Shown here: positions 26,037 to 43,262 of the stretch, piece after piece
Position numbering within the stretch: the first letter of the stretch is position 1
Layout: each line of letters opens with the position of its first letter
Program-made: the position numbers and the translations under genes
NCBI RefSeq assembly: GCF_030384885.1
Contig: NZ_CP128613.1
Source: Escherichia coli
GTDB taxonomy: Bacteria > Pseudomonadota > Gammaproteobacteria > Enterobacterales > Enterobacteriaceae
Length of the DNA stretch: 64,000 bases
Reading direction: 5' to 3' (one strand)
The notes under the pieces: model-generated
What the model was told of the DNA's origin: nothing
The model's input: the letters and a program-made list of their open reading frames with translations, nothing else
Database searches by the model: none

Positions 26037-26112
26037 GATATGGGGTTTGGACGTTGTTAATGAGCAGGACAATCATGACCGCCAACGACTGGATTCTGCC
26101 TTGGTTTATGTT

Positions 26113-26126
26113 GGTGCGCATAATGT
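26113..26126. other. Left prophage-chromosome junction (dif-derived XerC arm fused to phage sequence)
   Basis: GGTGCGCATAATGT core followed by phage-derived CAACGCGTTATGTTGAAAAGG; sequence to the left differs from that left of the other two core copies, so it is chromosomal. Confidence 0.7.
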
Positions 26127-26210
26127 CAACGCGTTATGTTGAAAAGGCCGCTGCGAAAATCGAATCCCGCAGCGGCCTCTTTAGCATAACGTCATTGTGC
26201 GAACCAATAG

Positions 26211-27140
26211 CTACTTTTTCGTATAACTCTCTTCGCATTTAGCCAAAAACAGCAGATTAGTAGCGGTTAAATGAAGGGTATAACTCGCTAAATACTCAGG
26301 AACTTTTGTTATTTCTGCCCCTTGTCCATGTCCACCTTCTTTATTTCGAATGGTTGGAATACCACTCTCAAGTAGAATTCTTATTGAAGAAAATTGATTC
26401 TGGAGGTATTCAGGTACTAAATTATTTGCCAAACAACTGTTAATTAGTTTTTTAGCTGTGTCAGTATCATTAAATTGCCAAGAATGTTTTTTATGTATGG
26501 CTTTCATTAGACTTTCAAAAGATTTGAGGCAATCATTTAAACATTCTTTATATCGCTGATGTCTATAATGCTCATGGGCGGATAAAAACTCATCGTTTGC
26601 TCCGTTATAACTCTTGTTCTTACCAAGAATCTGAAGCGTAGGCTTTACAACATCAGAATGAATGAATTGTGAGTCAACTTTAACCAACTCTCCTGACTCA
26701 AATTGATATCCAAGACCTGCTTCTTTAAACCTGATATTAAGTTCTTCAATAGCATCATCAGGACTTTGCTTTACTAACCCTCTGAATTTCCACTCATTTG
26801 ATCTTATATACCCGTCTATCAGTTTGAAACATATCTCAATGATATCCAAGCATTTTTCATGATCTCTCTCAGCTAGGAAATAGTCAAAAATTGCCCCGAA
26901 ATTCGATTCAGGATACTGTTTGAGAGAGAATACACCATATTCCTTACACAGCGTTTTATGAACGAGTCTGTAAAGCTTACTTGCTTCCGTTTCATAGTCA
27001 CTATCTTCACCGATAGTATCTCTTACAATATGAACAACCTGAACACGAAATGCATTTGGTATATTCGTGTATTGGTAAACATCAGCTACTTCACCTCTTA
27101 ATTTTTTTTGTCTTTTTGAAAATAATTCGAATATAGCCAA
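26211..27140 (-). CDS. Prophage cargo: putative HEPN-domain (Abi_C/AbiJ-like) abortive-infection protein
   Basis: 309-aa ORF with a C-terminal R-x5-H-G motif (IRNKEGGHGQG) of the kind seen in HEPN/Abi_C RNase domains. Apparent TTG start with RBS GAGGA 7 nt upstream. Last gene of the leftward operon. Family assignment is from motif recall only. Confidence 0.5.
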   Translation of the reverse strand: MAIFELFSKRQKKLRGEVADVYQYTNIPNAFRVQVVHIVRDTIGEDSDYETEASKLYRLVHKTLCKEYGVFSLKQYPESNFGAIFDYFLAERDHEKCLDIIEICFKLIDGYIRSNEWKFRGLVKQSPDDAIEELNIRFKEAGLGYQFESGELVKVDSQFIHSDVVKPTLQILGKNKSYNGANDEFLSAHEHYRHQRYKECLNDCLKSFESLMKAIHKKHSWQFNDTDTAKKLINSCLANNLVPEYLQNQFSSIRILLESGIPTIRNKEGGHGQGAEITKVPEYLASYTLHLTATNLLFLAKCEESYTKK

Positions 27141-27223
27141 TTTATAATCCTCAAAGATATGCCATTAATATGTCTGAGTTGATGAAAATCACACCGCTTT
27201 TACAGTCGTTTTCCACGGTGGAG

Positions 27224-27646
27224 TTACCAGTAATATGAGTTTCTTCTGTGCCACCAATAAAGAAGTCCGTATCCAATGATAAGAATTCCGAAAAACATCA
27301 ACGACATTCCCCAGCCAGTTCCGTACCACGAAACCATATCATCGAAAACTAACCCACCCATTTCACGAACTCCGGCTGCTTCCTTAAGAATTGGTTTGAA
27401 TACCGGAATCAGAAGGGCGATCGCAAGTGGAGCACCCCAGCGAACAAGACCAGTTTCCATTTTGATCCCGAAAAAGATCCCCGCACCGACAACAAGCAAC
27501 CAGACTATCAGGCCAGGCGCAGTTTCTAGTGCTGTTTGCCATTCAACATCGAAAGTTTTCATTAGCCAGGCAACAACTGCCAGACAGAAAGCAAATACGC
27601 CTACAACAACCAGTTCAACGCCGCTTGTTTCGTTATTTCTACTCAT
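27224..27646 (-). CDS. Prophage cargo: small integral membrane protein (about 4 TM helices)
   Basis: Track ORF 27224-27793 trimmed to the internal ATG at 27646 (MSRNNETSGVELVVVGVFAF...) with RBS AAGGAT, which removes the overlap with the upstream gene. Four hydrophobic segments; function unknown. Confidence 0.55.
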   Translation of the reverse strand: MSRNNETSGVELVVVGVFAFCLAVVAWLMKTFDVEWQTALETAPGLIVWLLVVGAGIFFGIKMETGLVRWGAPLAIALLIPVFKPILKEAAGVREMGGLVFDDMVSWYGTGWGMSLMFFGILIIGYGLLYWWHRRNSYYW

Positions 27647-27734
27647 CCTTTTGATCCTTTGTTGCTGTTCAAAATCCGCACAATAAAGAACGTGCAGTGT
27701 AGGTAATACTGCACGTTTGTACCATTCGTGGTAC

Positions 27735-27917
27735 TTAATCCTTTTGTTTGGCAGACATGAGATCTTCTGCTGCATCTTTAGAGTAGTTATCAATCAGATA
27801 ACCTAAAATCTCTGTCCATGTAATTGTTTTTCCTAGTTTTACACTGGCATTTATAGCCAGTCGTTCTAGTTTCATTTTTCTTTCTTCCGTCACGTTATAA
27901 GTCGTGCGCTTTGCCAT
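27735..27917 (-). CDS. Small putative DNA-binding regulator (candidate phage repressor)
   Basis: 60-aa ORF divergently transcribed from gII, the position occupied by repressors in CTX-type phages; basic N-terminus (MAKRTTYNVTEERKMKLERLAI). Fold not verified. Confidence 0.4.
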   Translation of the reverse strand: MAKRTTYNVTEERKMKLERLAINASVKLGKTITWTEILGYLIDNYSKDAAEDLMSAKQKD

Positions 27918-27964
27918 TTTTTACGCTCGTTCAATGCAATATTTGAAGTGAGTATACATGCTCA

Positions 27965-28045
27965 TGAACTCATATCATCCAAGCCTCTTGAACTCACTAG
28001 CTCACTGGTGTAATGTTTAAACACTAATGAACTACTGAACTCATG
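27965..28045. promoter_or_regulatory. Divergent promoter/operator region with iterated TGAACTCA motifs
   Basis: TGAACTCA at 27965-27972, 27989-27996 and 28038-28045, plus the variant TGAACTAC at 28027-28034, between the regulator gene and gII. Confidence 0.5.
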
Positions 28046-28086
28046 TGTTAGTAAGTCGTCATTTTTGTAATTTTGAGGATTTATTC

Positions 28087-29139
28087 GTGATCGATTGGCT
28101 TACCGGGATTTTCCCTTGCACACACAAACCGCTTCCGGCGGGGAGTGTTGTCAGCGTTGATGCTGACGGTGCAATTGAGTGGGAAACCGTTAAGCGACTG
28201 ACTGTTCGCGGTTCGCATGAAGCAACGATGAAAGTACGATCGATAGGATCTAATGGCGAAGGTAAAGCGACACATTTGTACATTGATGGTAATCCTTCCA
28301 AGTTTCTGCAGGGGCATTCTGTTGTTGGGTCGGATGATATACAAGGGCTCATGTTGACGGTCTATGCCAGGATTTTATCCTTATTGAATATTCCTCATGA
28401 TTTAGCGGCTTATAAAGCCGTTATGGCAGGTCAGTATAAAATTTCACGTATTGACATTAATTACATGTATTCATTATCTACGCTGGAAAATGTCAGATCA
28501 TGGCTTTATGCCGCCGAATTTAAAGCTAAAACACGCCATGGTCGCGCATGTGGGAAAGGCGGTACAGTTTATTTAGGTAAAAACTCCCGTCGATGGAGTC
28601 TGAAATTTTATTCAAAATATGATGAACACGTTTCTGGTAAAAAAGGGCACCAGATAGCCGAAGAGTTTGTACGAGCCGGGTTACTGGACTGGACGAAAGA
28701 TAAATTACGTATTGAATTAACATTAAGAACAACTGAGCTTATTGATTTAAATTTAACGCTTGGCGCTAACTGGAATATGAAAACACCACGTCAATTATTC
28801 TCTGAATATGTAGGGAGAATAGAAATGAATCAGAATGCTATTTTAAGTGATGAAAAAATAACGAAACTGCCAAGAAAAATACAGTCAACTTATTTACTTT
28901 GGAAACAAGGGGCTAACATGAAAGAAATGTTACCTCATAACACTTTTTATCGCCATAGAAGAGAATTGCTTTCGTTCGGTATCGATATTAATTTCTATTG
29001 TGATTCACCAGACTCTAATAACGTTGTTCCGCTAATAAGAACGCTGGAAGCCAAGCCAGCGGAAATCCCCTTATGGATTTATGAGAAAGGTTTTATTTTC
29101 GATTACAACCGTATTTCGCACGCCAGTAGCTGGCATTAA
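28087..29139 (+). CDS. Replication initiation protein (gII-like rolling-circle nickase)
   Basis: Track ORF 28045-29139 (GTG). Preferred start is GTG 28087 with RBS GAGGA 7 nt upstream, giving N-terminus MIDWLTGIFPC... comparable to M13 pII MIDMLVLRLPF...; C-terminal NNVVPLIRT resembles pII NNVVPLVRF. Confidence 0.75.
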   Translation: MIDWLTGIFPCTHKPLPAGSVVSVDADGAIEWETVKRLTVRGSHEATMKVRSIGSNGEGKATHLYIDGNPSKFLQGHSVVGSDDIQGLMLTVYARILSLLNIPHDLAAYKAVMAGQYKISRIDINYMYSLSTLENVRSWLYAAEFKAKTRHGRACGKGGTVYLGKNSRRWSLKFYSKYDEHVSGKKGHQIAEEFVRAGLLDWTKDKLRIELTLRTTELIDLNLTLGANWNMKTPRQLFSEYVGRIEMNQNAILSDEKITKLPRKIQSTYLLWKQGANMKEMLPHNTFYRHRRELLSFGIDINFYCDSPDSNNVVPLIRTLEAKPAEIPLWIYEKGFIFDYNRISHASSWH

Positions 29140-29150
29140 AGGAAAGTAAT

Positions 29151-29468
29151 ATGTCTAATTATGGTCTTTTCGTTAAGGGTAAAATGTTGGGAGCCCGCCA
29201 ACGTAATAAAGTTAATGGTCAGGGCTATTATAATGAAATTGGTATTGGCCTTGAAATACCTGATGGTTTTGGTGGTACAAAGCAGGATCAAATTATTATT
29301 CGAGTTTCTCAGGCTCTCGTTAACGCAGGTCTAATGAACCAGGCGAATGCTTTCATTGGGAAATTAGTTCAAATTCCTGTCTATGTCCGTGCGTGGTCAA
29401 TGGAGGGTAGGGAAGGTGTAACTTATAATGTTTCTTCCGATGGTGGCATCGCAGAGATCAAAGGTTAA
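29151..29468 (+). CDS. ssDNA-binding protein (gV-like)
   Basis: 105-aa ORF immediately after gII with RBS AGGAAAG; position and size fit the inovirus ssDNA-binding protein. Confidence 0.65.
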   Translation: MSNYGLFVKGKMLGARQRNKVNGQGYYNEIGIGLEIPDGFGGTKQDQIIIRVSQALVNAGLMNQANAFIGKLVQIPVYVRAWSMEGREGVTYNVSSDGGIAEIKG

Positions 29469-29470
29469 AT

Positions 29471-29557
29471 ATGGACGATGTTATTCAAATTTTGATAGCG
29501 TCTGGCATCGTTATTTCTTTTGGCCTCGGCGCGATTACTGCGGGGGTCTTTCGTTAA
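29471..29557 (+). CDS. Minor coat protein (gVII-like), 28 aa
   Basis: MDDVIQILIASGIVISFGLGAITAGVFR resembles M13 g7p (MEQVADFDTIYQAMIQISVVLCFALGIIAGGQR). Below the ORF-track size cut-off; found by hand. Confidence 0.65.
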   Translation: MDDVIQILIASGIVISFGLGAITAGVFR

Positions 29558-29652
29558 TGTATATCGTTTATTTCTTCGGGGCTTATACCTTTGGTTTTGC
29601 CCTTTTCTATGCGGTCGGTTCATTTAAATCATTTTCTGACCGATTAATGTAA
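29557..29652 (+). CDS. Minor coat protein (gIX-like), 31 aa
   Basis: MYIVYFFGAYTFGFALFYAVGSFKSFSDRLM; start overlaps the gVII stop (TAATG) as in Ff phages; hydrophobic like M13 g9p. Confidence 0.6.
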   Translation: MYIVYFFGAYTFGFALFYAVGSFKSFSDRLM

Positions 29653-29671
29653 CCTTAATGGAGTTATTCCT

Positions 29672-29914
29672 ATGAAAATTCTGTCTACTGTTAAATATAA
29701 AGTTGCTCTGGCTTCAACTGCGCTTTTTATTTCTGCAAGTTCTTTTGCGGCTGAAGGCGCTACAGGTGGTACTGATTATGCAGGCCAGGCAATGGATGCT
29801 TTGTTGACTCAGGCAAATGATCTCATTGGTAAAGTATGGCCTGTTGTTGTGGCTGTGGTTGGCGCTGGGCTTGCCATTCGTATTTTCAAAAAATTCTCTT
29901 CAAAAGCGGTTTGA
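29672..29914 (+). CDS. Major coat protein (gVIII-like)
   Basis: 80-aa ORF with signal peptide ending SFAAEG and C-terminus [12 protein letters not shown], close to M13 g8p (...SFAAEG... IKLFKKFTSKAS). Confidence 0.9.
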
Positions 29915-29960
29915 ATTTCACTCAGGGGCACTCGTTGCCCCTTTATTAAAGCGGGTTACT

Positions 29961-31211
29961 ATGAAAAGGAAAATATTAATTCTTTCCGCTGTCCTCATTT
30001 CTCCTTTTTCACATGCTGAGTCATGGGAAAGCATTACTAAATCCACTTATCAAAGTTCTGCCTATGCTGAAAGTAAGCAAATAACCAATCAGGATGGCTC
30101 TAAGATAACGGTTTACTATATTGATGCTGCTATGCAGGCCTCCGCTTGTCAGGGTGCTAAATCCAGTGCTCAGAGTGTATTTACTCGGATTAAACCAACT
30201 TATGAGGGTATCTGGCCTGATTCTGAATTCCGTCTTGTTTTTACTGGCGATTGTACTTACAGCGATTCACCAGGGCAGAAGGATAAATATTGGTCTTTAA
30301 CGGCTTATATTGTTGGTAATATTCAGCGTTCTGTTCCTGATGAAAAACCTACTGACCCGACACCAGAAGAAATTTGTGAAGCGAAGCCGCCAGAAGAAGG
30401 TGTATTTAATAATGTTGATTCATATGATGGTGGTCGCTATATCTACTATAACGGCTGTGAATATGAGGCTACTGGTGTCATTGTTTGTCAGGGTGATGGT
30501 ACTGTTTGCGCTGCAACATGGAAGCCTACAGGTGCTGTAGCTGACCCCTCTGATAAACCCTCAACCCCCCAAAATGGTGGTGGTGAGTCTGGCGGTGGTG
30601 AGTCCGGCGGTGGTGAGTCCGGTGGTGGTGAGTCTGGCGGTGGTGAGTCCGGTGGCGGTAGTTCTGGCGGTGGCTCTAGTGGTTCCAGTCTTTCTAAAGG
30701 TGATATTCAGTCTGCGATCGAAGGTGCTTCACCCAAAATAGCCAGCGATATTCATGATAAATTAACGGAGAAAGACACTTCATCAGATGATAAAAAAAAT
30801 GCCGATGAACAAACCAGGAATAATATAAATCGTCTTGACGATTCCATTAACAATCTTACGCGGGGGGCTGGCCGTTTTGCTGACCCTTCAGGTGGTGATT
30901 CTCGTTATGGAAAGGGCGACTCTGAATTAGATGGCGCTTCTACTTTAGCTGATTCTGAATTGGGAATTGAAAAGGATTCTCACGGTGCTTTATGGGAAGC
31001 ATTTTTAAATAAAGGTGCTATGCTGCCTAATTTACCCAATGGTAACGGCTGCTCTGATTTTATTATTTTTCCCGGAGAGGTTTATCAGATTGATATTGGT
31101 TGCGATAAATTACTGACTATTAAAGATGTTCTTTCATGGGTTTTTTATTGCCTTACGTTCTGGTATGTCTTTACTTCTTTAACTTCATTGCTTCGCAAAG
31201 GGGGTGAGTGA
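29961..31211 (+). CDS. Adsorption protein (gIII-like) with Gly-rich linker
   Basis: Track ORF 29817-31211 trimmed to ATG 29961 ([19 protein letters not shown] signal peptide). GGGES x5 linker and C-terminal anchor (IDIGCDKLL...[17 protein letters not shown]) resemble M13 g3p. Confidence 0.85.
30575..30690 (+). repeat. Tandem 15-bp coding repeats (GGGES)n in the gIII linker
   Basis: Repeated ggtggtgagtc(c/t)ggc units read directly. Confidence 0.85.
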
Positions 31212-31552
31212 TGCCTTTATTATTAGGTATTCCTGCATTGTTGCGTTTTCTTATTGGTCTTGTTCCTTTGTTTATTGGCTATGTGGCGAGTTTTTTAGCT
31301 CGACTTGCTACCAGAACAGGATTAATTGCCTTTGCATTGGTCGCATTAATTACAACAACTGTTACGCTTTTAATGCAGTACCTTGCTGAGGTCATGTATA
31401 ACGGTTTACCTGCTGATTTCTCCCATTTAATGGCGTCTGTATTGCCTGACCATTTTCAGGCGTGTGTTAACGTTATTATGGTTACTCGTATCAGTGTTTT
31501 TGTTTTCGATTTAAAACAAAAATTTCTTGATTATGCAAACAGGGTGATTTAA
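31211..31552 (+). CDS. Minor coat protein (gVI-like)
   Basis: [24 protein letters not shown]... resembles M13 g6p MPVLLGIPLLLRFLGFLLVTLFGY...; ATG overlaps the gIII stop (TGATG). Confidence 0.85.
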   Translation: MPLLLGIPALLRFLIGLVPLFIGYVASFLARLATRTGLIAFALVALITTTVTLLMQYLAEVMYNGLPADFSHLMASVLPDHFQACVNVIMVTRISVFVFDLKQKFLDYANRVI

Positions 31553-32647
31553 ATGGCGGTTTATGTAGTAACAGGCAAATTAGGCTCAGGCAAGACACTT
31601 GTTAGTGTTTCCAGAATACAGGAAAGACTTGCTAAGGGTTGTCCTGTTGCCACTAATCTTGATCTTAAATTGCATAATATGCCTATGGTTGGGCGTTATG
31701 CGAAAAAAACGCGCGTTATTCGCATTCCTGACAAACCTTCATTAAATGATTTACTTGCTATTGGTACTGGGAATACATCTTACGATGAATCCCGTAATGG
31801 CCTCCTTGTACTTGATGAATGTGGTACTTGGTTTAATTCCCGCTCATGGGGTGATAAAGACAGGCAACCTGTTATTGACTGGTTTTTACATGCCAGAAAA
31901 TTAGGCTGGGATATTATATTTTTGATTCAGGATATTTCGATAATGGATAAGCAAGCTCGTCTGGCGCTTGCTGAGCATGTTGTTTATTGTCGCCGTTCAG
32001 ATAAATTAAACATTCCTTTTGTTGGCTCCATTATGAATTTGGTTTCAGGGGCGAGATTTTCTTTACCAAAGGTACACTTTGGCATTGTCAAATATGGTGA
32101 TAATGTTAATTCAATCACTGTTGATAAATGGATATATACAGGAAAATCTCTTTATTCTGCTTACAATACCAAACAAGCGTTCACAGATAATTATCCTCAT
32201 GGCGCATTTTCGCTTTTGCCACCATTTATCACGCACGGTCAATTTTCTGTTCACAGAGGATTTAATTATTATATGCGCCTCACTAAAATTTATTTTCGCA
32301 AATCGAACCGTCTTATATTAATGCTTTCTTTTTTGGCGCTGGGGCTTGCGTTTGGTTTCTGGCTCCAGTCTGGAAAGAATGTTGATGAAATCTCAGCTAT
32401 TAAATCTGCTTATGCTGAACAGGCGAGGGCGGTAACGCCTGATTCGTCCAGTGACTTACCCCGACTTTCTATTAATTCTTTTTCACAACTTGGCTTTGAC
32501 GTTTCCGTTACGTTTGTTGATGCAAAAGGTATGAAATATCAGTATTTTGATTTGATTAAAGATGGTTATTCCGTTGATATTAAAGATGCCTGTCGTGTTG
32601 TTATTAGAAAAGGCCGTTATTTACAGACTGTTACCTGTCAGGAGTAA
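31553..32647 (+). CDS. Assembly ATPase (gI-like; Zot family)
   Basis: MAVYVVTGKLGSGKTLVSV... resembles M13 g1p MAVYFVTGKLGSGKTLVSV...; Walker A GKLGSGKT; C-terminal TM segment. Confidence 0.9.
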   Translation: MAVYVVTGKLGSGKTLVSVSRIQERLAKGCPVATNLDLKLHNMPMVGRYAKKTRVIRIPDKPSLNDLLAIGTGNTSYDESRNGLLVLDECGTWFNSRSWGDKDRQPVIDWFLHARKLGWDIIFLIQDISIMDKQARLALAEHVVYCRRSDKLNIPFVGSIMNLVSGARFSLPKVHFGIVKYGDNVNSITVDKWIYTGKSLYSAYNTKQAFTDNYPHGAFSLLPPFITHGQFSVHRGFNYYMRLTKIYFRKSNRLILMLSFLALGLAFGFWLQSGKNVDEISAIKSAYAEQARAVTPDSSSDLPRLSINSFSQLGFDVSVTFVDAKGMKYQYFDLIKDGYSVDIKDACRVVIRKGRYLQTVTCQE

Positions 32648-32654
32648 TATTATT

Positions 32655-33920
32655 ATGCGCTCTGTTATTGTTGCTTTTTTATTTGCCTGTTCATTCTGCG
32701 TTTCTGCTGAAACTGTTAATTTAAATAATTCATCTGTTCGCTCATTTGTTCAGTGGTATTCTTCAAAAACTGGCAAGCCTGTTATTGTTAATCCTGATAT
32801 TAAAGGAAACGTAACCGTATTTAATGCTGATGTTAATCCAGCAAATATTGATGATTTCTTTAAGTCTGTTCTGAATGCTAACGGTTTTGTCATGCTTTCT
32901 GGCAATCCTGCGGTAGTCTCTTTGCCGTCTAAATTACCTTCACAGATGGTTTCGGATTCCGATGATTCTGATAACCAGTCTTATGATACTTTTCCTTCTG
33001 AGCCATCTTACCAGCCAGTACCTGTGGCGCTTACGGTCAGAAATTTTAAGCTGACAAAAGTTAGATCGTCCGATGTTCAGCAACTGATTAAAATTTATCT
33101 TGATTCTAATGGTGGTGGTAATGTCGTGGATTATCCAGGCAATAACTCGCTGATTGTTTCTGCGCCTGACGAGCTGCTGCCGGTTCTGTCCGATTTTATC
33201 AATTCTGTGGATGTTGCCCGCGATCAGGTTCTCATTCAGTCGCTGATGTTTGAAACCAGCTTGTCTGATGGCGTTGATTTATCGTTTGCGGCAGGTTCTG
33301 CATCCGGTCATAAGGTTGCGGGGGGCTTTAATACTTCTGCACTGGGTAGCGCTCTTTCTACGGCGGGCGGTTCTTTTGGTATTTTTGATGGTAACGTGTT
33401 GGCGCTGTCTCTGCGTGCTGTCCAGAGTAATTCACGCTCTAAGGTGATTTCAACGCCGCGTATTCTTACTCAGTCTGGTCAGACTGGTTACATTTCCGTA
33501 GGTAAGAATGTGCCGTTTATCACCGGAAAGGTAACGGGCGAATCTGCCGGGGTAAATAATCCGTTTCAGACTATCGAGCGTCATGATGTTGGCGTTTCTC
33601 TCAAGGTAACGCCTGTTGTCATGGGTAACGGGCAACTAGTTCTGACTATCGACACTCGCGCTGATTCAATCAGCAATGATGATCAGGCATCCGATATTAT
33701 TACTAATCAGCGCCAGATTCAGACGACAGTCCAGATTAAGGATGGTCAGACGTTGTTATTGGGAGGGCTTATCGATTCATCGTTCAGCAATGCCGAGCGT
33801 TCAGTTCCAGTTATAAGTAAAATTCCTCTTATAGGCTGGATTTTCAGTAGCAAGGCAGACAGCAATGAACAGCGTATTATGTATATTTTGCTTACAGCAC
33901 ATATCATTCGTCCACTTTGA
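32655..33920 (+). CDS. Outer-membrane secretin (gIV-like)
   Basis: Track ORF 32562-33920 trimmed to ATG 32655 (MRSVIVAFLFACSFCVSA signal peptide). Secretin C-domain (GQTLLLGGLIDSSFSNAERSVPVISKIPLIGWIFSS) resembles M13 g4p. Confidence 0.9.
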   Translation: MRSVIVAFLFACSFCVSAETVNLNNSSVRSFVQWYSSKTGKPVIVNPDIKGNVTVFNADVNPANIDDFFKSVLNANGFVMLSGNPAVVSLPSKLPSQMVSDSDDSDNQSYDTFPSEPSYQPVPVALTVRNFKLTKVRSSDVQQLIKIYLDSNGGGNVVDYPGNNSLIVSAPDELLPVLSDFINSVDVARDQVLIQSLMFETSLSDGVDLSFAAGSASGHKVAGGFNTSALGSALSTAGGSFGIFDGNVLALSLRAVQSNSRSKVISTPRILTQSGQTGYISVGKNVPFITGKVTGESAGVNNPFQTIERHDVGVSLKVTPVVMGNGQLVLTIDTRADSISNDDQASDIITNQRQIQTTVQIKDGQTLLLGGLIDSSFSNAERSVPVISKIPLIGWIFSSKADSNEQRIMYILLTAHIIRPL

Positions 33921-33962
33921 TGGATAGCGGGTAGGTGCGTGAGCCCTGCTCGCTATCCATCA
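33918..33962 (+). other. Strong stem-loop after gIV (candidate packaging signal, origin element or terminator)
   Basis: Perfect 12-bp inverted repeat TGATGGATAGCG / CGCTATCCATCA around a 21-nt loop, with no trailing T-run. Confidence 0.5.
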
Positions 33963-33989
33963 AATGGACATTATTGATTGGGGTAACTA

Positions 33990-34298
33990 ATGGATTCTTA
34001 TGGGATTTTATCTGCTCTGGCAGAACGAACGATTACAGCGGAAGAAGCAAAAACAATGACACTTGCAGCCAGAAGTTCTTCGGCTCAGGTAAATGAAGCA
34101 TCACTTGCTCTGTTACTGATTGATAATACTCTGGATGCGATCAAAGCAGCTGCCAGTGAAGGGAAAGGATACACTTTACTTCCTTCTTATGAGATTTCTG
34201 TAAAAGCCATTGATTTAGCAGAAGAATTTTTAAGGAAACAATGCGGCTATGTTATTGATAACCAGAATGGCGTAAGGACGGTCTATTGGTTTATATGA
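33990..34298 (+). CDS. Prophage cargo: hypothetical 102-aa protein
   Basis: ORF after gIV, where Ff phages have only the non-coding intergenic region; no recognisable motif. Confidence 0.45.
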   Translation: MDSYGILSALAERTITAEEAKTMTLAARSSSAQVNEASLALLLIDNTLDAIKAAASEGKGYTLLPSYEISVKAIDLAEEFLRKQCGYVIDNQNGVRTVYWFI

Positions 34299-34415
34299 TA
34301 ACCCCGGACAATGACAAAACTTGCTTTTGTTAGTGTCAGGGGTTGGCCAAGCCGAACAATTCTGTTTTTTTAGCGTTATTGCTGATTCGGCGCGGCAGCA
34401 TTACGAGGAGATAAA

Positions 34416-34649
34416 ATGCAATTTTTCACATCCAGCGATACTGTAATGTTATGTGCGAAGACCTGCGATCGCTGTGGTCGCCATGCGAAGACGGTGGTAG
34501 ATGACATTGAGTTCAATGAGTTTCTGTCTGTTAATCACTTAGCTGGATACGGTTCAATTTTTGGTGACAGTAATCGCTTAAAACTGGATTTATGCCAACA
34601 TTGCCTGAAAGACGTCCTGGGCCAGTGGATTACGGTCTGTGACCAATGA
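34416..34649 (+). CDS. Prophage cargo: small zinc-ribbon protein (CxxC...CxxC)
   Basis: 77-aa ORF with CDRC ... CQHC cysteine pairs; RBS GAGGAG upstream. Confidence 0.5.
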   Translation: MQFFTSSDTVMLCAKTCDRCGRHAKTVVDDIEFNEFLSVNHLAGYGSIFGDSNRLKLDLCQHCLKDVLGQWITVCDQ

Positions 34650-34687
34650 CGGCACCGGTAACGCCAGTTCCCGCCATCCTTACCATT

Positions 34688-34701
34688 GGTGCGCATAATG
34701 T
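34688..34701. other. Inter-copy junction (reconstituted phage attP-like site)
   Basis: GGTGCGCATAATGT core flanked by phage sequence on both sides (...CCATCCTTACCATT | core | CAACGCGTTATGTTGAAAAGG). Confidence 0.7.
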
Positions 34702-34785
34702 CAACGCGTTATGTTGAAAAGGCCGCTGCGAAAATCGAATCCCGCAGCGGCCTCTTTAGCATAACGTCATTGTGCGAACCAATAG

Positions 34786-35715
34786 CTACTTTTTCGTATA
34801 ACTCTCTTCGCATTTAGCCAAAAACAGCAGATTAGTAGCGGTTAAATGAAGGGTATAACTCGCTAAATACTCAGGAACTTTTGTTATTTCTGCCCCTTGT
34901 CCATGTCCACCTTCTTTATTTCGAATGGTTGGAATACCACTCTCAAGTAGAATTCTTATTGAAGAAAATTGATTCTGGAGGTATTCAGGTACTAAATTAT
35001 TTGCCAAACAACTGTTAATTAGTTTTTTAGCTGTGTCAGTATCATTAAATTGCCAAGAATGTTTTTTATGTATGGCTTTCATTAGACTTTCAAAAGATTT
35101 GAGGCAATCATTTAAACATTCTTTATATCGCTGATGTCTATAATGCTCATGGGCGGATAAAAACTCATCGTTTGCTCCGTTATAACTCTTGTTCTTACCA
35201 AGAATCTGAAGCGTAGGCTTTACAACATCAGAATGAATGAATTGTGAGTCAACTTTAACCAACTCTCCTGACTCAAATTGATATCCAAGACCTGCTTCTT
35301 TAAACCTGATATTAAGTTCTTCAATAGCATCATCAGGACTTTGCTTTACTAACCCTCTGAATTTCCACTCATTTGATCTTATATACCCGTCTATCAGTTT
35401 GAAACATATCTCAATGATATCCAAGCATTTTTCATGATCTCTCTCAGCTAGGAAATAGTCAAAAATTGCCCCGAAATTCGATTCAGGATACTGTTTGAGA
35501 GAGAATACACCATATTCCTTACACAGCGTTTTATGAACGAGTCTGTAAAGCTTACTTGCTTCCGTTTCATAGTCACTATCTTCACCGATAGTATCTCTTA
35601 CAATATGAACAACCTGAACACGAAATGCATTTGGTATATTCGTGTATTGGTAAACATCAGCTACTTCACCTCTTAATTTTTTTTGTCTTTTTGAAAATAA
35701 TTCGAATATAGCCAA
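34786..35715 (-). CDS. Copy 2: putative HEPN/Abi_C-like protein
   Basis: Identical translation to 26211-27140 (offset +8575). Confidence 0.5.
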   Translation of the reverse strand: MAIFELFSKRQKKLRGEVADVYQYTNIPNAFRVQVVHIVRDTIGEDSDYETEASKLYRLVHKTLCKEYGVFSLKQYPESNFGAIFDYFLAERDHEKCLDIIEICFKLIDGYIRSNEWKFRGLVKQSPDDAIEELNIRFKEAGLGYQFESGELVKVDSQFIHSDVVKPTLQILGKNKSYNGANDEFLSAHEHYRHQRYKECLNDCLKSFESLMKAIHKKHSWQFNDTDTAKKLINSCLANNLVPEYLQNQFSSIRILLESGIPTIRNKEGGHGQGAEITKVPEYLASYTLHLTATNLLFLAKCEESYTKK

Positions 35716-35798
35716 TTTATAATCCTCAAAGATATGCCATTAATATGTCTGAGTTGATGAAAATCACACCGCTTTTACAGTCGTTTTCCACGGTGGAG

Positions 35799-36221
35799 TT
35801 ACCAGTAATATGAGTTTCTTCTGTGCCACCAATAAAGAAGTCCGTATCCAATGATAAGAATTCCGAAAAACATCAACGACATTCCCCAGCCAGTTCCGTA
35901 CCACGAAACCATATCATCGAAAACTAACCCACCCATTTCACGAACTCCGGCTGCTTCCTTAAGAATTGGTTTGAATACCGGAATCAGAAGGGCGATCGCA
36001 AGTGGAGCACCCCAGCGAACAAGACCAGTTTCCATTTTGATCCCGAAAAAGATCCCCGCACCGACAACAAGCAACCAGACTATCAGGCCAGGCGCAGTTT
36101 CTAGTGCTGTTTGCCATTCAACATCGAAAGTTTTCATTAGCCAGGCAACAACTGCCAGACAGAAAGCAAATACGCCTACAACAACCAGTTCAACGCCGCT
36201 TGTTTCGTTATTTCTACTCAT
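35799..36221 (-). CDS. Copy 2: small integral membrane protein
   Basis: Identical to 27224-27646 (offset +8575). Confidence 0.55.
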   Translation of the reverse strand: MSRNNETSGVELVVVGVFAFCLAVVAWLMKTFDVEWQTALETAPGLIVWLLVVGAGIFFGIKMETGLVRWGAPLAIALLIPVFKPILKEAAGVREMGGLVFDDMVSWYGTGWGMSLMFFGILIIGYGLLYWWHRRNSYYW

Positions 36222-36309
36222 CCTTTTGATCCTTTGTTGCTGTTCAAAATCCGCACAATAAAGAACGTGCAGTGTAGGTAATACTGCACGTTTGTACCAT
36301 TCGTGGTAC

Positions 36310-36492
36310 TTAATCCTTTTGTTTGGCAGACATGAGATCTTCTGCTGCATCTTTAGAGTAGTTATCAATCAGATAACCTAAAATCTCTGTCCATGTAATT
36401 GTTTTTCCTAGTTTTACACTGGCATTTATAGCCAGTCGTTCTAGTTTCATTTTTCTTTCTTCCGTCACGTTATAAGTCGTGCGCTTTGCCAT
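36310..36492 (-). CDS. Copy 2: small putative DNA-binding regulator
   Basis: Identical to 27735-27917 (offset +8575). Confidence 0.4.
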   Translation of the reverse strand: MAKRTTYNVTEERKMKLERLAINASVKLGKTITWTEILGYLIDNYSKDAAEDLMSAKQKD

Positions 36493-36539
36493 TTTTTACG
36501 CTCGTTCAATGCAATATTTGAAGTGAGTATACATGCTCA

Positions 36540-36620
36540 TGAACTCATATCATCCAAGCCTCTTGAACTCACTAGCTCACTGGTGTAATGTTTAAACACT
36601 AATGAACTACTGAACTCATG
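36540..36620. promoter_or_regulatory. Copy 2: TGAACTCA iteron/operator region
   Basis: Identical to 27965-28045 (offset +8575). Confidence 0.5.
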
Positions 36621-36661
36621 TGTTAGTAAGTCGTCATTTTTGTAATTTTGAGGATTTATTC

Positions 36662-37714
36662 GTGATCGATTGGCTTACCGGGATTTTCCCTTGCACACAC
36701 AAACCGCTTCCGGCGGGGAGTGTTGTCAGCGTTGATGCTGACGGTGCAATTGAGTGGGAAACCGTTAAGCGACTGACTGTTCGCGGTTCGCATGAAGCAA
36801 CGATGAAAGTACGATCGATAGGATCTAATGGCGAAGGTAAAGCGACACATTTGTACATTGATGGTAATCCTTCCAAGTTTCTGCAGGGGCATTCTGTTGT
36901 TGGGTCGGATGATATACAAGGGCTCATGTTGACGGTCTATGCCAGGATTTTATCCTTATTGAATATTCCTCATGATTTAGCGGCTTATAAAGCCGTTATG
37001 GCAGGTCAGTATAAAATTTCACGTATTGACATTAATTACATGTATTCATTATCTACGCTGGAAAATGTCAGATCATGGCTTTATGCCGCCGAATTTAAAG
37101 CTAAAACACGCCATGGTCGCGCATGTGGGAAAGGCGGTACAGTTTATTTAGGTAAAAACTCCCGTCGATGGAGTCTGAAATTTTATTCAAAATATGATGA
37201 ACACGTTTCTGGTAAAAAAGGGCACCAGATAGCCGAAGAGTTTGTACGAGCCGGGTTACTGGACTGGACGAAAGATAAATTACGTATTGAATTAACATTA
37301 AGAACAACTGAGCTTATTGATTTAAATTTAACGCTTGGCGCTAACTGGAATATGAAAACACCACGTCAATTATTCTCTGAATATGTAGGGAGAATAGAAA
37401 TGAATCAGAATGCTATTTTAAGTGATGAAAAAATAACGAAACTGCCAAGAAAAATACAGTCAACTTATTTACTTTGGAAACAAGGGGCTAACATGAAAGA
37501 AATGTTACCTCATAACACTTTTTATCGCCATAGAAGAGAATTGCTTTCGTTCGGTATCGATATTAATTTCTATTGTGATTCACCAGACTCTAATAACGTT
37601 GTTCCGCTAATAAGAACGCTGGAAGCCAAGCCAGCGGAAATCCCCTTATGGATTTATGAGAAAGGTTTTATTTTCGATTACAACCGTATTTCGCACGCCA
37701 GTAGCTGGCATTAA
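36662..37714 (+). CDS. Copy 2: replication initiation protein (gII-like)
   Basis: Identical to 28087-29139 (offset +8575). Confidence 0.75.
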   Translation: MIDWLTGIFPCTHKPLPAGSVVSVDADGAIEWETVKRLTVRGSHEATMKVRSIGSNGEGKATHLYIDGNPSKFLQGHSVVGSDDIQGLMLTVYARILSLLNIPHDLAAYKAVMAGQYKISRIDINYMYSLSTLENVRSWLYAAEFKAKTRHGRACGKGGTVYLGKNSRRWSLKFYSKYDEHVSGKKGHQIAEEFVRAGLLDWTKDKLRIELTLRTTELIDLNLTLGANWNMKTPRQLFSEYVGRIEMNQNAILSDEKITKLPRKIQSTYLLWKQGANMKEMLPHNTFYRHRRELLSFGIDINFYCDSPDSNNVVPLIRTLEAKPAEIPLWIYEKGFIFDYNRISHASSWH

Positions 37715-37725
37715 AGGAAAGTAAT

Positions 37726-38043
37726 ATGTCTAATTATGGTCTTTTCGTTAAGGGTAAAATGTTGGGAGCCCGCCAACGTAATAAAGTTAATGGTCAGGGC
37801 TATTATAATGAAATTGGTATTGGCCTTGAAATACCTGATGGTTTTGGTGGTACAAAGCAGGATCAAATTATTATTCGAGTTTCTCAGGCTCTCGTTAACG
37901 CAGGTCTAATGAACCAGGCGAATGCTTTCATTGGGAAATTAGTTCAAATTCCTGTCTATGTCCGTGCGTGGTCAATGGAGGGTAGGGAAGGTGTAACTTA
38001 TAATGTTTCTTCCGATGGTGGCATCGCAGAGATCAAAGGTTAA
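37726..38043 (+). CDS. Copy 2: ssDNA-binding protein (gV-like)
   Basis: Identical to 29151-29468 (offset +8575). Confidence 0.65.
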   Translation: MSNYGLFVKGKMLGARQRNKVNGQGYYNEIGIGLEIPDGFGGTKQDQIIIRVSQALVNAGLMNQANAFIGKLVQIPVYVRAWSMEGREGVTYNVSSDGGIAEIKG

Positions 38044-38045
38044 AT

Positions 38046-38132
38046 ATGGACGATGTTATTCAAATTTTGATAGCGTCTGGCATCGTTATTTCTTTTGGCC
38101 TCGGCGCGATTACTGCGGGGGTCTTTCGTTAA
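38046..38132 (+). CDS. Copy 2: gVII-like minor coat protein
   Basis: Identical to 29471-29557 (offset +8575). Confidence 0.65.
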   Translation: MDDVIQILIASGIVISFGLGAITAGVFR

Positions 38133-38227
38133 TGTATATCGTTTATTTCTTCGGGGCTTATACCTTTGGTTTTGCCCTTTTCTATGCGGTCGGTTCATTT
38201 AAATCATTTTCTGACCGATTAATGTAA
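38132..38227 (+). CDS. Copy 2: gIX-like minor coat protein
   Basis: Identical to 29557-29652 (offset +8575). Confidence 0.6.
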   Translation: MYIVYFFGAYTFGFALFYAVGSFKSFSDRLM

Positions 38228-38246
38228 CCTTAATGGAGTTATTCCT

Positions 38247-38489
38247 ATGAAAATTCTGTCTACTGTTAAATATAAAGTTGCTCTGGCTTCAACTGCGCTT
38301 TTTATTTCTGCAAGTTCTTTTGCGGCTGAAGGCGCTACAGGTGGTACTGATTATGCAGGCCAGGCAATGGATGCTTTGTTGACTCAGGCAAATGATCTCA
38401 TTGGTAAAGTATGGCCTGTTGTTGTGGCTGTGGTTGGCGCTGGGCTTGCCATTCGTATTTTCAAAAAATTCTCTTCAAAAGCGGTTTGA
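38247..38489 (+). CDS. Copy 2: major coat protein (gVIII-like)
   Basis: Identical to 29672-29914 (offset +8575). Confidence 0.9.
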
Positions 38490-38535
38490 ATTTCACTCAG
38501 GGGCACTCGTTGCCCCTTTATTAAAGCGGGTTACT

Positions 38536-39786
38536 ATGAAAAGGAAAATATTAATTCTTTCCGCTGTCCTCATTTCTCCTTTTTCACATGCTGAGTCATG
38601 GGAAAGCATTACTAAATCCACTTATCAAAGTTCTGCCTATGCTGAAAGTAAGCAAATAACCAATCAGGATGGCTCTAAGATAACGGTTTACTATATTGAT
38701 GCTGCTATGCAGGCCTCCGCTTGTCAGGGTGCTAAATCCAGTGCTCAGAGTGTATTTACTCGGATTAAACCAACTTATGAGGGTATCTGGCCTGATTCTG
38801 AATTCCGTCTTGTTTTTACTGGCGATTGTACTTACAGCGATTCACCAGGGCAGAAGGATAAATATTGGTCTTTAACGGCTTATATTGTTGGTAATATTCA
38901 GCGTTCTGTTCCTGATGAAAAACCTACTGACCCGACACCAGAAGAAATTTGTGAAGCGAAGCCGCCAGAAGAAGGTGTATTTAATAATGTTGATTCATAT
39001 GATGGTGGTCGCTATATCTACTATAACGGCTGTGAATATGAGGCTACTGGTGTCATTGTTTGTCAGGGTGATGGTACTGTTTGCGCTGCAACATGGAAGC
39101 CTACAGGTGCTGTAGCTGACCCCTCTGATAAACCCTCAACCCCCCAAAATGGTGGTGGTGAGTCTGGCGGTGGTGAGTCCGGCGGTGGTGAGTCCGGTGG
39201 TGGTGAGTCTGGCGGTGGTGAGTCCGGTGGCGGTAGTTCTGGCGGTGGCTCTAGTGGTTCCAGTCTTTCTAAAGGTGATATTCAGTCTGCGATCGAAGGT
39301 GCTTCACCCAAAATAGCCAGCGATATTCATGATAAATTAACGGAGAAAGACACTTCATCAGATGATAAAAAAAATGCCGATGAACAAACCAGGAATAATA
39401 TAAATCGTCTTGACGATTCCATTAACAATCTTACGCGGGGGGCTGGCCGTTTTGCTGACCCTTCAGGTGGTGATTCTCGTTATGGAAAGGGCGACTCTGA
39501 ATTAGATGGCGCTTCTACTTTAGCTGATTCTGAATTGGGAATTGAAAAGGATTCTCACGGTGCTTTATGGGAAGCATTTTTAAATAAAGGTGCTATGCTG
39601 CCTAATTTACCCAATGGTAACGGCTGCTCTGATTTTATTATTTTTCCCGGAGAGGTTTATCAGATTGATATTGGTTGCGATAAATTACTGACTATTAAAG
39701 ATGTTCTTTCATGGGTTTTTTATTGCCTTACGTTCTGGTATGTCTTTACTTCTTTAACTTCATTGCTTCGCAAAGGGGGTGAGTGA
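38536..39786 (+). CDS. Copy 2: adsorption protein (gIII-like)
   Basis: Identical to 29961-31211 (offset +8575). Confidence 0.85.
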
Positions 39787-40127
39787 TGCCTTTATTATTA
39801 GGTATTCCTGCATTGTTGCGTTTTCTTATTGGTCTTGTTCCTTTGTTTATTGGCTATGTGGCGAGTTTTTTAGCTCGACTTGCTACCAGAACAGGATTAA
39901 TTGCCTTTGCATTGGTCGCATTAATTACAACAACTGTTACGCTTTTAATGCAGTACCTTGCTGAGGTCATGTATAACGGTTTACCTGCTGATTTCTCCCA
40001 TTTAATGGCGTCTGTATTGCCTGACCATTTTCAGGCGTGTGTTAACGTTATTATGGTTACTCGTATCAGTGTTTTTGTTTTCGATTTAAAACAAAAATTT
40101 CTTGATTATGCAAACAGGGTGATTTAA
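39786..40127 (+). CDS. Copy 2: gVI-like minor coat protein
   Basis: Identical to 31211-31552 (offset +8575). Confidence 0.85.
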   Translation: MPLLLGIPALLRFLIGLVPLFIGYVASFLARLATRTGLIAFALVALITTTVTLLMQYLAEVMYNGLPADFSHLMASVLPDHFQACVNVIMVTRISVFVFDLKQKFLDYANRVI

Positions 40128-41222
40128 ATGGCGGTTTATGTAGTAACAGGCAAATTAGGCTCAGGCAAGACACTTGTTAGTGTTTCCAGAATACAGGAAA
40201 GACTTGCTAAGGGTTGTCCTGTTGCCACTAATCTTGATCTTAAATTGCATAATATGCCTATGGTTGGGCGTTATGCGAAAAAAACGCGCGTTATTCGCAT
40301 TCCTGACAAACCTTCATTAAATGATTTACTTGCTATTGGTACTGGGAATACATCTTACGATGAATCCCGTAATGGCCTCCTTGTACTTGATGAATGTGGT
40401 ACTTGGTTTAATTCCCGCTCATGGGGTGATAAAGACAGGCAACCTGTTATTGACTGGTTTTTACATGCCAGAAAATTAGGCTGGGATATTATATTTTTGA
40501 TTCAGGATATTTCGATAATGGATAAGCAAGCTCGTCTGGCGCTTGCTGAGCATGTTGTTTATTGTCGCCGTTCAGATAAATTAAACATTCCTTTTGTTGG
40601 CTCCATTATGAATTTGGTTTCAGGGGCGAGATTTTCTTTACCAAAGGTACACTTTGGCATTGTCAAATATGGTGATAATGTTAATTCAATCACTGTTGAT
40701 AAATGGATATATACAGGAAAATCTCTTTATTCTGCTTACAATACCAAACAAGCGTTCACAGATAATTATCCTCATGGCGCATTTTCGCTTTTGCCACCAT
40801 TTATCACGCACGGTCAATTTTCTGTTCACAGAGGATTTAATTATTATATGCGCCTCACTAAAATTTATTTTCGCAAATCGAACCGTCTTATATTAATGCT
40901 TTCTTTTTTGGCGCTGGGGCTTGCGTTTGGTTTCTGGCTCCAGTCTGGAAAGAATGTTGATGAAATCTCAGCTATTAAATCTGCTTATGCTGAACAGGCG
41001 AGGGCGGTAACGCCTGATTCGTCCAGTGACTTACCCCGACTTTCTATTAATTCTTTTTCACAACTTGGCTTTGACGTTTCCGTTACGTTTGTTGATGCAA
41101 AAGGTATGAAATATCAGTATTTTGATTTGATTAAAGATGGTTATTCCGTTGATATTAAAGATGCCTGTCGTGTTGTTATTAGAAAAGGCCGTTATTTACA
41201 GACTGTTACCTGTCAGGAGTAA
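40128..41222 (+). CDS. Copy 2: assembly ATPase (gI/Zot-like)
   Basis: Identical to 31553-32647 (offset +8575). Confidence 0.9.
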   Translation: MAVYVVTGKLGSGKTLVSVSRIQERLAKGCPVATNLDLKLHNMPMVGRYAKKTRVIRIPDKPSLNDLLAIGTGNTSYDESRNGLLVLDECGTWFNSRSWGDKDRQPVIDWFLHARKLGWDIIFLIQDISIMDKQARLALAEHVVYCRRSDKLNIPFVGSIMNLVSGARFSLPKVHFGIVKYGDNVNSITVDKWIYTGKSLYSAYNTKQAFTDNYPHGAFSLLPPFITHGQFSVHRGFNYYMRLTKIYFRKSNRLILMLSFLALGLAFGFWLQSGKNVDEISAIKSAYAEQARAVTPDSSSDLPRLSINSFSQLGFDVSVTFVDAKGMKYQYFDLIKDGYSVDIKDACRVVIRKGRYLQTVTCQE

Positions 41223-41229
41223 TATTATT

Positions 41230-42495: not shown

Positions 42496-42537
42496 TGGAT
42501 AGCGGGTAGGTGCGTGAGCCCTGCTCGCTATCCATCA
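42493..42537 (+). other. Copy 2: stem-loop after gIV
   Basis: Identical to 33918-33962 (offset +8575). Confidence 0.5.
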
Positions 42538-42564
42538 AATGGACATTATTGATTGGGGTAACTA

Positions 42565-42873
42565 ATGGATTCTTATGGGATTTTATCTGCTCTGGCAGAA
42601 CGAACGATTACAGCGGAAGAAGCAAAAACAATGACACTTGCAGCCAGAAGTTCTTCGGCTCAGGTAAATGAAGCATCACTTGCTCTGTTACTGATTGATA
42701 ATACTCTGGATGCGATCAAAGCAGCTGCCAGTGAAGGGAAAGGATACACTTTACTTCCTTCTTATGAGATTTCTGTAAAAGCCATTGATTTAGCAGAAGA
42801 ATTTTTAAGGAAACAATGCGGCTATGTTATTGATAACCAGAATGGCGTAAGGACGGTCTATTGGTTTATATGA
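42565..42873 (+). CDS. Copy 2: hypothetical 102-aa cargo protein
   Basis: Identical to 33990-34298 (offset +8575). Confidence 0.45.
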   Translation: MDSYGILSALAERTITAEEAKTMTLAARSSSAQVNEASLALLLIDNTLDAIKAAASEGKGYTLLPSYEISVKAIDLAEEFLRKQCGYVIDNQNGVRTVYWFI

Positions 42874-42990
42874 TAACCCCGGACAATGACAAAACTTGCT
42901 TTTGTTAGTGTCAGGGGTTGGCCAAGCCGAACAATTCTGTTTTTTTAGCGTTATTGCTGATTCGGCGCGGCAGCATTACGAGGAGATAAA

Positions 42991-43224
42991 ATGCAATTTT
43001 TCACATCCAGCGATACTGTAATGTTATGTGCGAAGACCTGCGATCGCTGTGGTCGCCATGCGAAGACGGTGGTAGATGACATTGAGTTCAATGAGTTTCT
43101 GTCTGTTAATCACTTAGCTGGATACGGTTCAATTTTTGGTGACAGTAATCGCTTAAAACTGGATTTATGCCAACATTGCCTGAAAGACGTCCTGGGCCAG
43201 TGGATTACGGTCTGTGACCAATGA
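42991..43224 (+). CDS. Copy 2: zinc-ribbon cargo protein
   Basis: Identical to 34416-34649 (offset +8575). Confidence 0.5.
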   Translation: MQFFTSSDTVMLCAKTCDRCGRHAKTVVDDIEFNEFLSVNHLAGYGSIFGDSNRLKLDLCQHCLKDVLGQWITVCDQ

Positions 43225-43262
43225 CGGCACCGGTAACGCCAGTTCCCGCCATCCTTACCATT

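Follow-up and report, generated by a model that had tools for sequence, protein, structure and literature searches.

Proteins that pair an AbiJ-NTD4 domain with an AbiJ-type HEPN domain were first defined, with CBY_0614 as the prototype, in an analysis which proposed that the N-terminal domains of such proteins serve both as sensors of phage components and as a restraint on a suicidal HEPN RNase (Anantharaman et al. 2013; PMC3710099). The family that carries this two-domain architecture, STM4504/CBY_0614 (NF046078), comprises proteins of ~300 amino acids with an RN-x4-HG motif that are predicted to act as single-protein abortive infection (Abi) factors. In this report, we describe a 309 amino acid member of the family that is encoded within a 64,000 nucleotide (nt) stretch of an Escherichia coli chromosome (contig NZ_CP128613.1; hereafter the window). 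The protein shows no architectural difference from the rest of the family and what is particular to it is its carrier, a filamentous (inovirus) prophage at dif, in which it is encoded alongside two other leftward genes specifying proteins of 60 and 140 amino acids.

Lactococcus lactis AbiJ (Abi-859, 282 amino acids) is likewise a single-polypeptide Abi protein borne on a mobile element and ends in an Abi_C-type HEPN domain, but its N-terminal domain differs from that of the 309 amino acid protein, this domain being variable across AbiJ-family proteins. The mechanism of the lactococcal protein is unexplained, with escape mutations found in a phage single-stranded DNA (ssDNA)-annealing protein, SSAP (PMC13064643). 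Taranis, a combination of Abi_C with a distant AbiJ_NTD5, is a validated defence system from a Vibrio cholerae integron cassette and has been cited alongside Klebsiella phage-inducible chromosomal island systems with Abi_C or AbiJ_NTD domains (bioRxiv 10.1101/2024.07.02.601686). Like the gene described here, Taranis is a compact single-gene Abi_C/HEPN cassette, but its N-terminus is NTD5-like rather than NTD4, and its anti-phage activity has been shown experimentally. HepS, encoded by the Salmonella prophage Gifsy-1 (PDB 9oik), has no sequence relation to the 309 amino acid protein beyond the HEPN core, possesses a different sensor region and is carried by a tailed prophage.

The position of the gene also has precedents. 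In their published organisation, CUS-1 and YpfPhi lie in tandem at dif and have a leftward arm made up of a regulator at the RstR position and attL-adjacent open reading frames (ORFs) that vary among phages (PMC4266046), whilst in Vibrio filamentous prophages a variable locus is enriched in defence genes (PMC11630473). YpfPhi YPO2271/2272, CUS-1 orf1/orf1a and the Vibrio accessory locus all share the position of the gene described here, between an RstR-like regulator and attL of a tandem dif inovirus, but the genes that fill this slot in different phages are unrelated to each other. The published accounts describe the ORFs of YpfPhi and CUS-1 as lacking homologues, whereas the slot in the present prophage holds an identifiable AbiJ-type gene.

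A first-pass annotation of the window, made from the sequence alone, had proposed that the three leftward genes form a single functional module, either a defence or a toxin system, in which the pairing of a membrane protein with a HEPN protein was new. Neither proposal stands up to the comparisons described below, which point instead to a mosaic arm and to a defence candidate consisting of the 309 amino acid protein alone.

The 309 amino acid protein and its family

The gene starts on a rare TTG codon preceded by a good ribosome-binding site, as had been noted at first pass: the sequence GAGGA lies 7 nt upstream and RefSeq annotates the same 309 amino acid product. The N-terminal sequence, MAIFELFSKRQKK, fits the family consensus MxIxDxFSKRxKR. 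A search with hidden Markov models, which the first-pass annotation had suggested as a check on its reading, placed the protein in the STM4504/CBY_0614 family with a score of 456.1 bits against NCBIfam NF046078.1 (cut-off 150), residues 23–300 being aligned to positions 1–280 of the 281 in the profile. Pfam AbiJ_NTD4 (PF18863) matches residues 5–168 (E 8.6e-27, model positions 1–150 of 152) and Pfam DUF7014 matches residues 170–305 (E 1.8e-77). Version 11 of the Abi_C model (PF14355) matches the protein at E 0.62, which is below threshold, as is the match to HEPN; precomputed annotation with version 13 of Abi_C assigns PF14355 (E <= 1e-5) together with PF18863 to representatives of the homologues and to a 74%-identical homologue.

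The R-x5-H-G motif that had been picked out near the C-terminus lies within PTIRNKEGGHGQG at residues 262–274 (R265-x5-H271-G272). In 59 homologues that are 37–57% identical to the protein, R265, N266, H271 and G272 are each at least 90% conserved. The protein has the Rx4-6H pattern of HEPN domains with a polar residue following the arginine (R265-N266-KEGG-H271-G272) and placed ahead of the final helix, and the domain is modelled by AlphaFold2 as an all-alpha, four-helix, up-and-down bundle (pLDDT 88.7 for the full protein). NCBIfam, Pfam, motif conservation and the structural model therefore agree on an AbiJ-type HEPN domain, probably of the Abi_C class, and bear out the first-pass reading of the motif. 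A search of PDB sequences with the protein returned noise only. In all 14 of the comparisons made, substitutions are two to three times more numerous in the N-terminal domain than in the HEPN domain, an asymmetry that fits a fast-evolving sensor joined to a conserved effector.

Homologues are numerous. An exhaustive HMMER search recovered 2,720 clusters at 50% identity, nearly all of them ~300 amino acids long and matched end to end. Amongst phage genomes, a protein search of INPHARED found only five records, named either ‘Abortive infection C-terminus’ or ‘putative abortive infection protein’, and a DNA search of the region against the same collection gave no match. Equivalence to YPO2271/2272 was considered, but the listed members of the cluster to which the gene belongs come from E. 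coli, Salmonella and Pectobacterium, with none from Yersinia pestis.

Exchangeable modules of the leftward arm

The STM4504/CBY_0614 family is widespread in the absence of the membrane protein. A stand-alone homologue with 74% identity forms a single-gene cassette in the V. cholerae superintegron, where it lies among ParE/Phd, DUF645 and acetyltransferase cassettes, and other lone homologues are found beside an integrase and beside a transposase-like gene. Members of the family are also present on 340 PLSDB plasmids (300 of them conjugative), such as pAPEC-O1-ColBM, where a 60.5%-identical paralogue (133063–134004) is located between insertion sequence elements; large conjugative plasmids of the IncF/ColV type in E. 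coli and Salmonella commonly carry this paralogue as a stand-alone gene. Occurrence is uneven within inoviruses as well. Of 5,426 complete E. coli genomes, 127 have the membrane gene and 17 the HEPN gene, which is missing from 110 of the 127.

Comparison with related prophages by blastn revealed breakpoints between the genes. In strain F11, which carries three tandem inovirus copies with differing regulators and cargo at one dif site, homology to copy 2 is limited to 26111–26208 and 27199–28150 of the window, and two genes encoding 123 and 155 amino acid proteins replace exactly the 309 amino acid gene in between. Homology to F11 copy 1 covers 26052–26208 and 27678–28150, with three other genes replacing both the membrane gene and the HEPN gene, and the breakpoint at 27678 falls directly past the hairpins that follow the 60 amino acid gene. 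Phages of the NC101/Salmonella type have positions 26052–27745 in common with the window, after which both the regulator and the structural backbone differ: the 60 amino acid protein gives way, in the NC101, UTI89 and Salmonella phages, to a 148 amino acid HTH_3 protein with a weak RstR-family match. The divergence of neighbouring genes is also discordant, the 309 amino acid gene being 100% identical at the nucleotide level between two inovirus backbones and the adjacent membrane gene 96.7%. From the stand-alone homologues, the breakpoints, the uneven occurrence and the discordant divergence, it follows that regulator, membrane gene and cargo assort combinatorially. On this comparative evidence, the leftward arm appears to be a mosaic whose three modules are exchanged independently of one another, rather than one system, and the earlier view of the 309 amino acid gene as accessory cargo of the prophage is borne out.

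At least six alternative cassettes are found in the same slot, encoding proteins of 369, 367, 155 + 123, 91 + 159, 46 + 91 + 230 and 54 + 105 + 257 amino acids. The 369 amino acid gene is that of UTI89 and the 367 amino acid gene that of TW10590, whilst the 91 + 159 pair comes from ST131 strain MB1159 and the 54 + 105 + 257 set from a Yersinia enterocolitica phage. Scans of these cassettes with PADLOC, NCBIfam and Pfam found no significant match to a defence family, and the sole domain among them is a small zinc-binding match (NCBIfam ECs_2282_CxxC) in the 91 amino acid protein of ST131.

The slot is bounded on the attL side by a 98 nt left-end segment that is palindromic (it has self-inverted matches), derived from attP and 93–96% conserved in the F11 and Y. 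enterocolitica phages, in which the cargo differs. A hairpin lies directly 3' of the stop codon of the 309 amino acid gene (RNA fold −44.1 kcal/mol, z −7.1). The segment probably doubles as terminator of the cargo gene and as a folded attP/XerCD substrate of the type known from CTXphi and YpfPhi.

All three leftward genes are present on the minus strand, divergent from gII (28045–29139), as originally described, and the 60 amino acid gene does sit at the RstR (repressor) position of CTX-type phages. Its product matches PHROG 2503, a family of 72 clusters; no Pfam match was found even at E 10, nor any match in PADLOC or to PDB sequences. The AlphaFold2 model (pLDDT 80.7) has an extended N-terminus and two helices, and the conserved residues comprise K3-R4-x-T-Y-N-V-T-E and a turn at G29-K-T31. 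Both the sequence pattern and the strand-helix-helix layout of the model fit a ribbon-helix-helix protein, and the 60 amino acid protein may possibly be one; a Foldseek search with the model gave nothing significant, the ribbon-helix-helix protein Reg576 being ranked 9th at E 7.

The control region between this gene and gII contains three direct repeats of CTnnTGAACTCA (27961–72, 27985–96 and 28032–43) that are, judging by sequence, candidate operators for the small regulator. The sequence TGAGTTCA occurs nine times in the window, against 2.0 expected, and three occurrences per phage copy cluster in the control region. A consensus scan identified a sole sigma-70-like site upstream of the 60 amino acid gene (27978–27951), fewer than shuffled sequences give, and one of the CTnnTGAACTCA repeats falls within its spacer. 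Of the two hairpins found 3' of the gene, the second consists of a 10-bp stem followed by UCUUUAUU and could act as a terminator or attenuator, although the consensus terminator scan made no call at these hairpins. Because the second hairpin separates the 60 amino acid gene from the membrane gene and has a U-rich tract behind it, transcription of the three genes as a single operon is an assumption. Taken with its operator-like repeats and trailing hairpin, the 60 amino acid gene is best read as the regulator of the phage, or its immunity gene, in the place of RstR.

For the membrane gene, a longer ORF of 189 amino acids (TTG start at 27793) was considered and rejected, its N-terminal 49 residues overlapping the 60 amino acid gene and the hairpin. 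The ATG that is M50 of this longer ORF has AAGGA 8 nt upstream and is the start used in RefSeq, in PHROG 4174 and in the homologues, which are nearly all 139–140 amino acids in length. Judged from the sequence, the 140 amino acid ORF is almost certainly the real extent of the gene. The 49-codon in-frame extension (27650–27793, minus strand) matches a separate PHROG, 6875 (E 2.5e-20), and ORFs called from the conserved hairpin region past the regulator gene are evidently frequent and probably annotation artefacts.

The product had been described as having four transmembrane segments. Kyte–Doolittle analysis does show four hydrophobic segments (residues ~10–29, 44–61, 68–85 and 112–132), of which the third is weak, making four transmembrane helices plausible but unproven; that the protein has no counterpart in Ff phages is supported. 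No match was found in Pfam (even at E 10), NCBIfam or PADLOC, and the family consists of 49 clusters, all from inoviruses of Enterobacterales. Compared with its relatives, the gene is 95.7–98.3% identical at the nucleotide level and its protein 97.9–100% identical, and in a Salmonella phage 18 nucleotide changes lead to a single amino acid change. Since protein identity exceeds nucleotide identity, these comparisons indicate that the protein is under purifying selection. It is a conserved inovirus-lineage protein predicted to be located in the inner membrane; a role in superinfection exclusion would be a guess. In E. coli EC5502 (NZ_CP092647.1), the membrane gene is present at 16 places in one chromosome, which suggests either that its inovirus array is exceptionally long or that many copies are scattered. 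Lonsdalea and Mixta have lone chromosomal copies with a glutaminase gene a few kb off and no inovirus genes around; these may be decayed remnants of dif inoviruses.

A possible mechanism and its alternatives

Taking the family assignment and the modular arrangement together, we think it probable, if well short of certain, that the 309 amino acid gene is a self-contained, single-polypeptide AbiJ-type defence or abortive infection candidate in the variable slot of the prophage. Were it expressed in the lysogen, as the first-pass annotation had supposed for a repressor-linked operon, the fast-evolving AbiJ-NTD4 domain would keep the HEPN RNase at the C-terminus silent until it encountered a phage component during infection, as envisaged by Anantharaman et al. 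(2013). An Rx5H active site that probably forms across a dimer would then cut cellular and/or phage RNA, and the ensuing growth stop would abort the infection and so protect the lysogen population and hence the prophage.

A number of points weigh against this interpretation. The active-site loop (residues 264–271) is the sole low-confidence part of the AlphaFold2 model. The consensus scan found no promoter for the cargo gene, and the membrane gene is preceded by the terminator-like hairpin. In PADLOC v2, the sole match is a partial one (residues 6–223, E 4.5e-10) to the unvalidated candidate PDC-S32, and no established system was matched. The literature searched contained no experiment on the function of AbiJ_NTD4, STM4504, DUF7014 or PDC-S32. 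Finally, when the inovirus NC-Ino, which carries an identical gene, was deleted from NC101, the titres and plaque sizes of four wastewater phages were unchanged, as was growth (PMC12803456). This negative result is weak because the four phages had been isolated on NC101 itself and were thus already past its defences.

Of the alternatives, the one that survives best is that the protein serves phage competition or the phage life cycle, either by acting on rival filamentous or ssDNA phages that compete for dif, as a superinfection exclusion exerted at the level of RNA, or by tuning the transcripts or virions of its own phage. Resident YpfPhi partly protects from superinfection by a mechanism that is unexplained (PMC4266046), F11 carries several inovirus types as well as tandem copies, with varied cargo, at a single dif, and the mapping of lactococcal AbiJ escape mutants to ssDNA-annealing proteins ties AbiJ-type sensing to ssDNA metabolism. 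Against this, the family is found mostly outside inoviruses, leaving any function peculiar to these phages as secondary, and the gene is absent from most related inoviruses and hence is not needed for the phage cycle; we regard such a role as unlikely. A more specific form of the idea, drawn by analogy, would make the AbiJ-NTD4/HEPN protein not a generic Abi protein directed at tailed phages but a weapon between filamentous or ssDNA elements at dif, one that senses a replication or ssDNA-handling protein of a rival inovirus, much as SSAP mutations allow escape from lactococcal AbiJ, possibly with input from the 140 amino acid protein at the site of entry or assembly. This we consider more doubtful still.

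Equally doubtful is an addiction or stabilisation module, in which a HEPN toxin, kept in check by its N-terminal domain, a neighbouring gene or an RNA, penalises loss of an unstable inovirus, whether integrated at dif or episomal, instead of defending against other phages. No adjacent antitoxin gene is conserved, the neighbours differing in every context, and the HEPN gene is limited to 17 of the 127 genomes that have related prophages; the NC101 inovirus, moreover, could be deleted without a growth defect. The region upstream of the gene has no tandem repeats and matches no Rfam family at gathering score, and on these grounds a type III toxin–antitoxin arrangement, in which the antitoxin would be an RNA as it is for AbiV/AbiF, was discarded.

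The gene might also be host-fitness or virulence cargo, or have no current function, its HEPN domain serving in binding rather than catalysis. CUS-1 and YpfPhi modestly raise fitness in vivo through genes that were not identified (PMC4266046), the 60%-identical paralogue is typical of ColV-type virulence plasmids, and deletion of the NC101 inovirus was without phage phenotype. However, the R-N...H-G motif and other HEPN core residues are near invariant over thousands of homologues and the distribution of the family is typical of defence genes, including integron cassettes and neighbourhoods such as that beside a DUF4145 HEPN gene and an integrase, making this account highly improbable.

Least probable of all is the three-component defence or toxin system, with the membrane protein sensing entry or acting as co-effector or antitoxin: the three genes are adjacent and co-oriented, every inovirus with the 309 amino acid gene (those of the 17 E. 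coli genomes and of Salmonella) places it immediately after the membrane gene, across a conserved spacer of 83 nt, and the consensus scan found no separate promoter for it, but occupancy of the variable slot accounts for the adjacency, the HEPN family is ~50 times more diverse than the membrane-protein family and is found alone in cassettes, islands and plasmids, most membrane-gene genomes lack the HEPN gene, and the breakpoints, the discordant divergence and the unrelated HTH regulator swapped in with the other two genes unchanged all run counter to it.

The prophage, its surroundings and the wider family

The prophage follows an ECSE_1600-type autotransporter gene (18765–24233) and hipBA (24430–26036). 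The two copies (26111–34685 and 34686–43260) have no mismatches across 8575 bp and are thus a perfect tandem duplication, in which all three leftward ORFs are repeated identically at +8575 bp (34786–36492). Hybrid XerCD sites, GGTGCGCATAATGTCAACGCGTTATGTT, are found at the left end and at the junction between the copies. The rightward genes are in canonical inovirus order, with gII (II/X replication), gV (ssDNA binding), G7P, gVIII (major coat) and gIII (attachment) followed by a gVI-like gene (DUF5455), Zot/gI, a secretin gene and two small ORFs. The replication and virion proteins have PHROG matches and the RefSeq annotation of the 99.5%-identical NCTC9104 locus agrees. Core gene order, regenerated dif, tandem copies and a divergent regulator beside the replication gene together identify an inovirus of the CUS-1/YpfPhi/CTX type. 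The features of the prophage are listed in Table 1.

Table 1 Features of the inovirus prophage and its leftward arm (window coordinates)
Feature	Position	Strand	Remarks
CUS-1/YpfPhi-type inovirus prophage	26111..43260	+	Tandem dimer, 2 x 8575 bp; between hipA and dif
Left-end segment, 98 nt	26111..26208	.	Hairpin/terminator and hybrid XerCD site GGTGCGCATAATGTCAACGCGTTATGTT; repeat at 34686-34783
Exchangeable single-gene cassette, ~990 bp	26209..27198	-	309 amino acid gene and 58 nt upstream with ribosome-binding site; bounded by blastn breakpoints
309 amino acid AbiJ-NTD4 + HEPN (Abi_C/DUF7014) protein, STM4504/CBY_0614 family	26211..27140	-	Second copy at 34786-35715
140 amino acid predicted inner-membrane protein	27224..27646	-	Second copy at 35799-36221
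Two hairpins 3' of the 60 amino acid gene	27678..27734	-	RNA fold -26.9 kcal/mol, z -3.2; part of regulator module
60 amino acid small basic protein, RstR (repressor) position	27735..27917	-	Second copy at 36310-36492
Divergent control region, 60 amino acid gene/gII, 127 bp	27918..28044	.	Second copy at 36493-36619
Intact chromosomal dif, regenerated	43263..43290	+	Right end of prophage array; 28/28 exact match to E. coli dif, 0 expected by chance

At the attR end, each copy has two small plus-strand ORFs, one of 102 amino acids (33990–34298) and one of 77 amino acids with two CxxC pairs (34416–34649), with second copies at +8575. They correspond to PHROGs 4115 and 5435, families to which no function is attached, and in position they resemble YPO2280a/2281, where CTXphi has ctxAB.

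Outside the prophage, ~1.7 kb past dif, a minus-strand ORF of 477 amino acids (44992–46425) consists largely of leucine-rich repeats of 20 residues (LPxLPxxLxxLdVsxNxLxSLP), with eight 60 nt tandem units and a local GC content of 0.57 (repeats at 45111–45770), and by eye is like leucine-rich repeat effectors of the IpaH/SspH/YopM type. The adjoining plus-strand ORF of 654 amino acids (47118–49082) has many repeats of ~33 residues (G-x-T/S-G...A...GH..I...ML) that look ankyrin-like, again by eye. Together the two genes may form an effector-like island just outside the prophage.

What had been supposed to be a new three-gene system is, then, an ordinary single gene of a known type, belonging to a family already named by NCBI, beside phage backbone genes. 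That family is very widespread, with members on ColV-type virulence plasmids, among the cassettes of the V. cholerae superintegron and in E. coli and Salmonella inoviruses, and in the literature searched it rests on the 2013 prediction, so that one functional test of the family would annotate thousands of genes. The variable slot of the dif inoviruses of Enterobacterales is now cleanly bounded, extending from the conserved membrane gene to the attP hairpin, and, judging from the P2/P4 hotspots and the loci of Vibrio filamentous phages, the other cassettes found in it make reasonable candidates as new genes for defence or competition. Should the 309 amino acid protein turn out to be a weapon between inoviruses, the attL slot of these phages, with its at least six domain-less cassettes, would be a hotspot of undiscovered inter-phage conflict genes.

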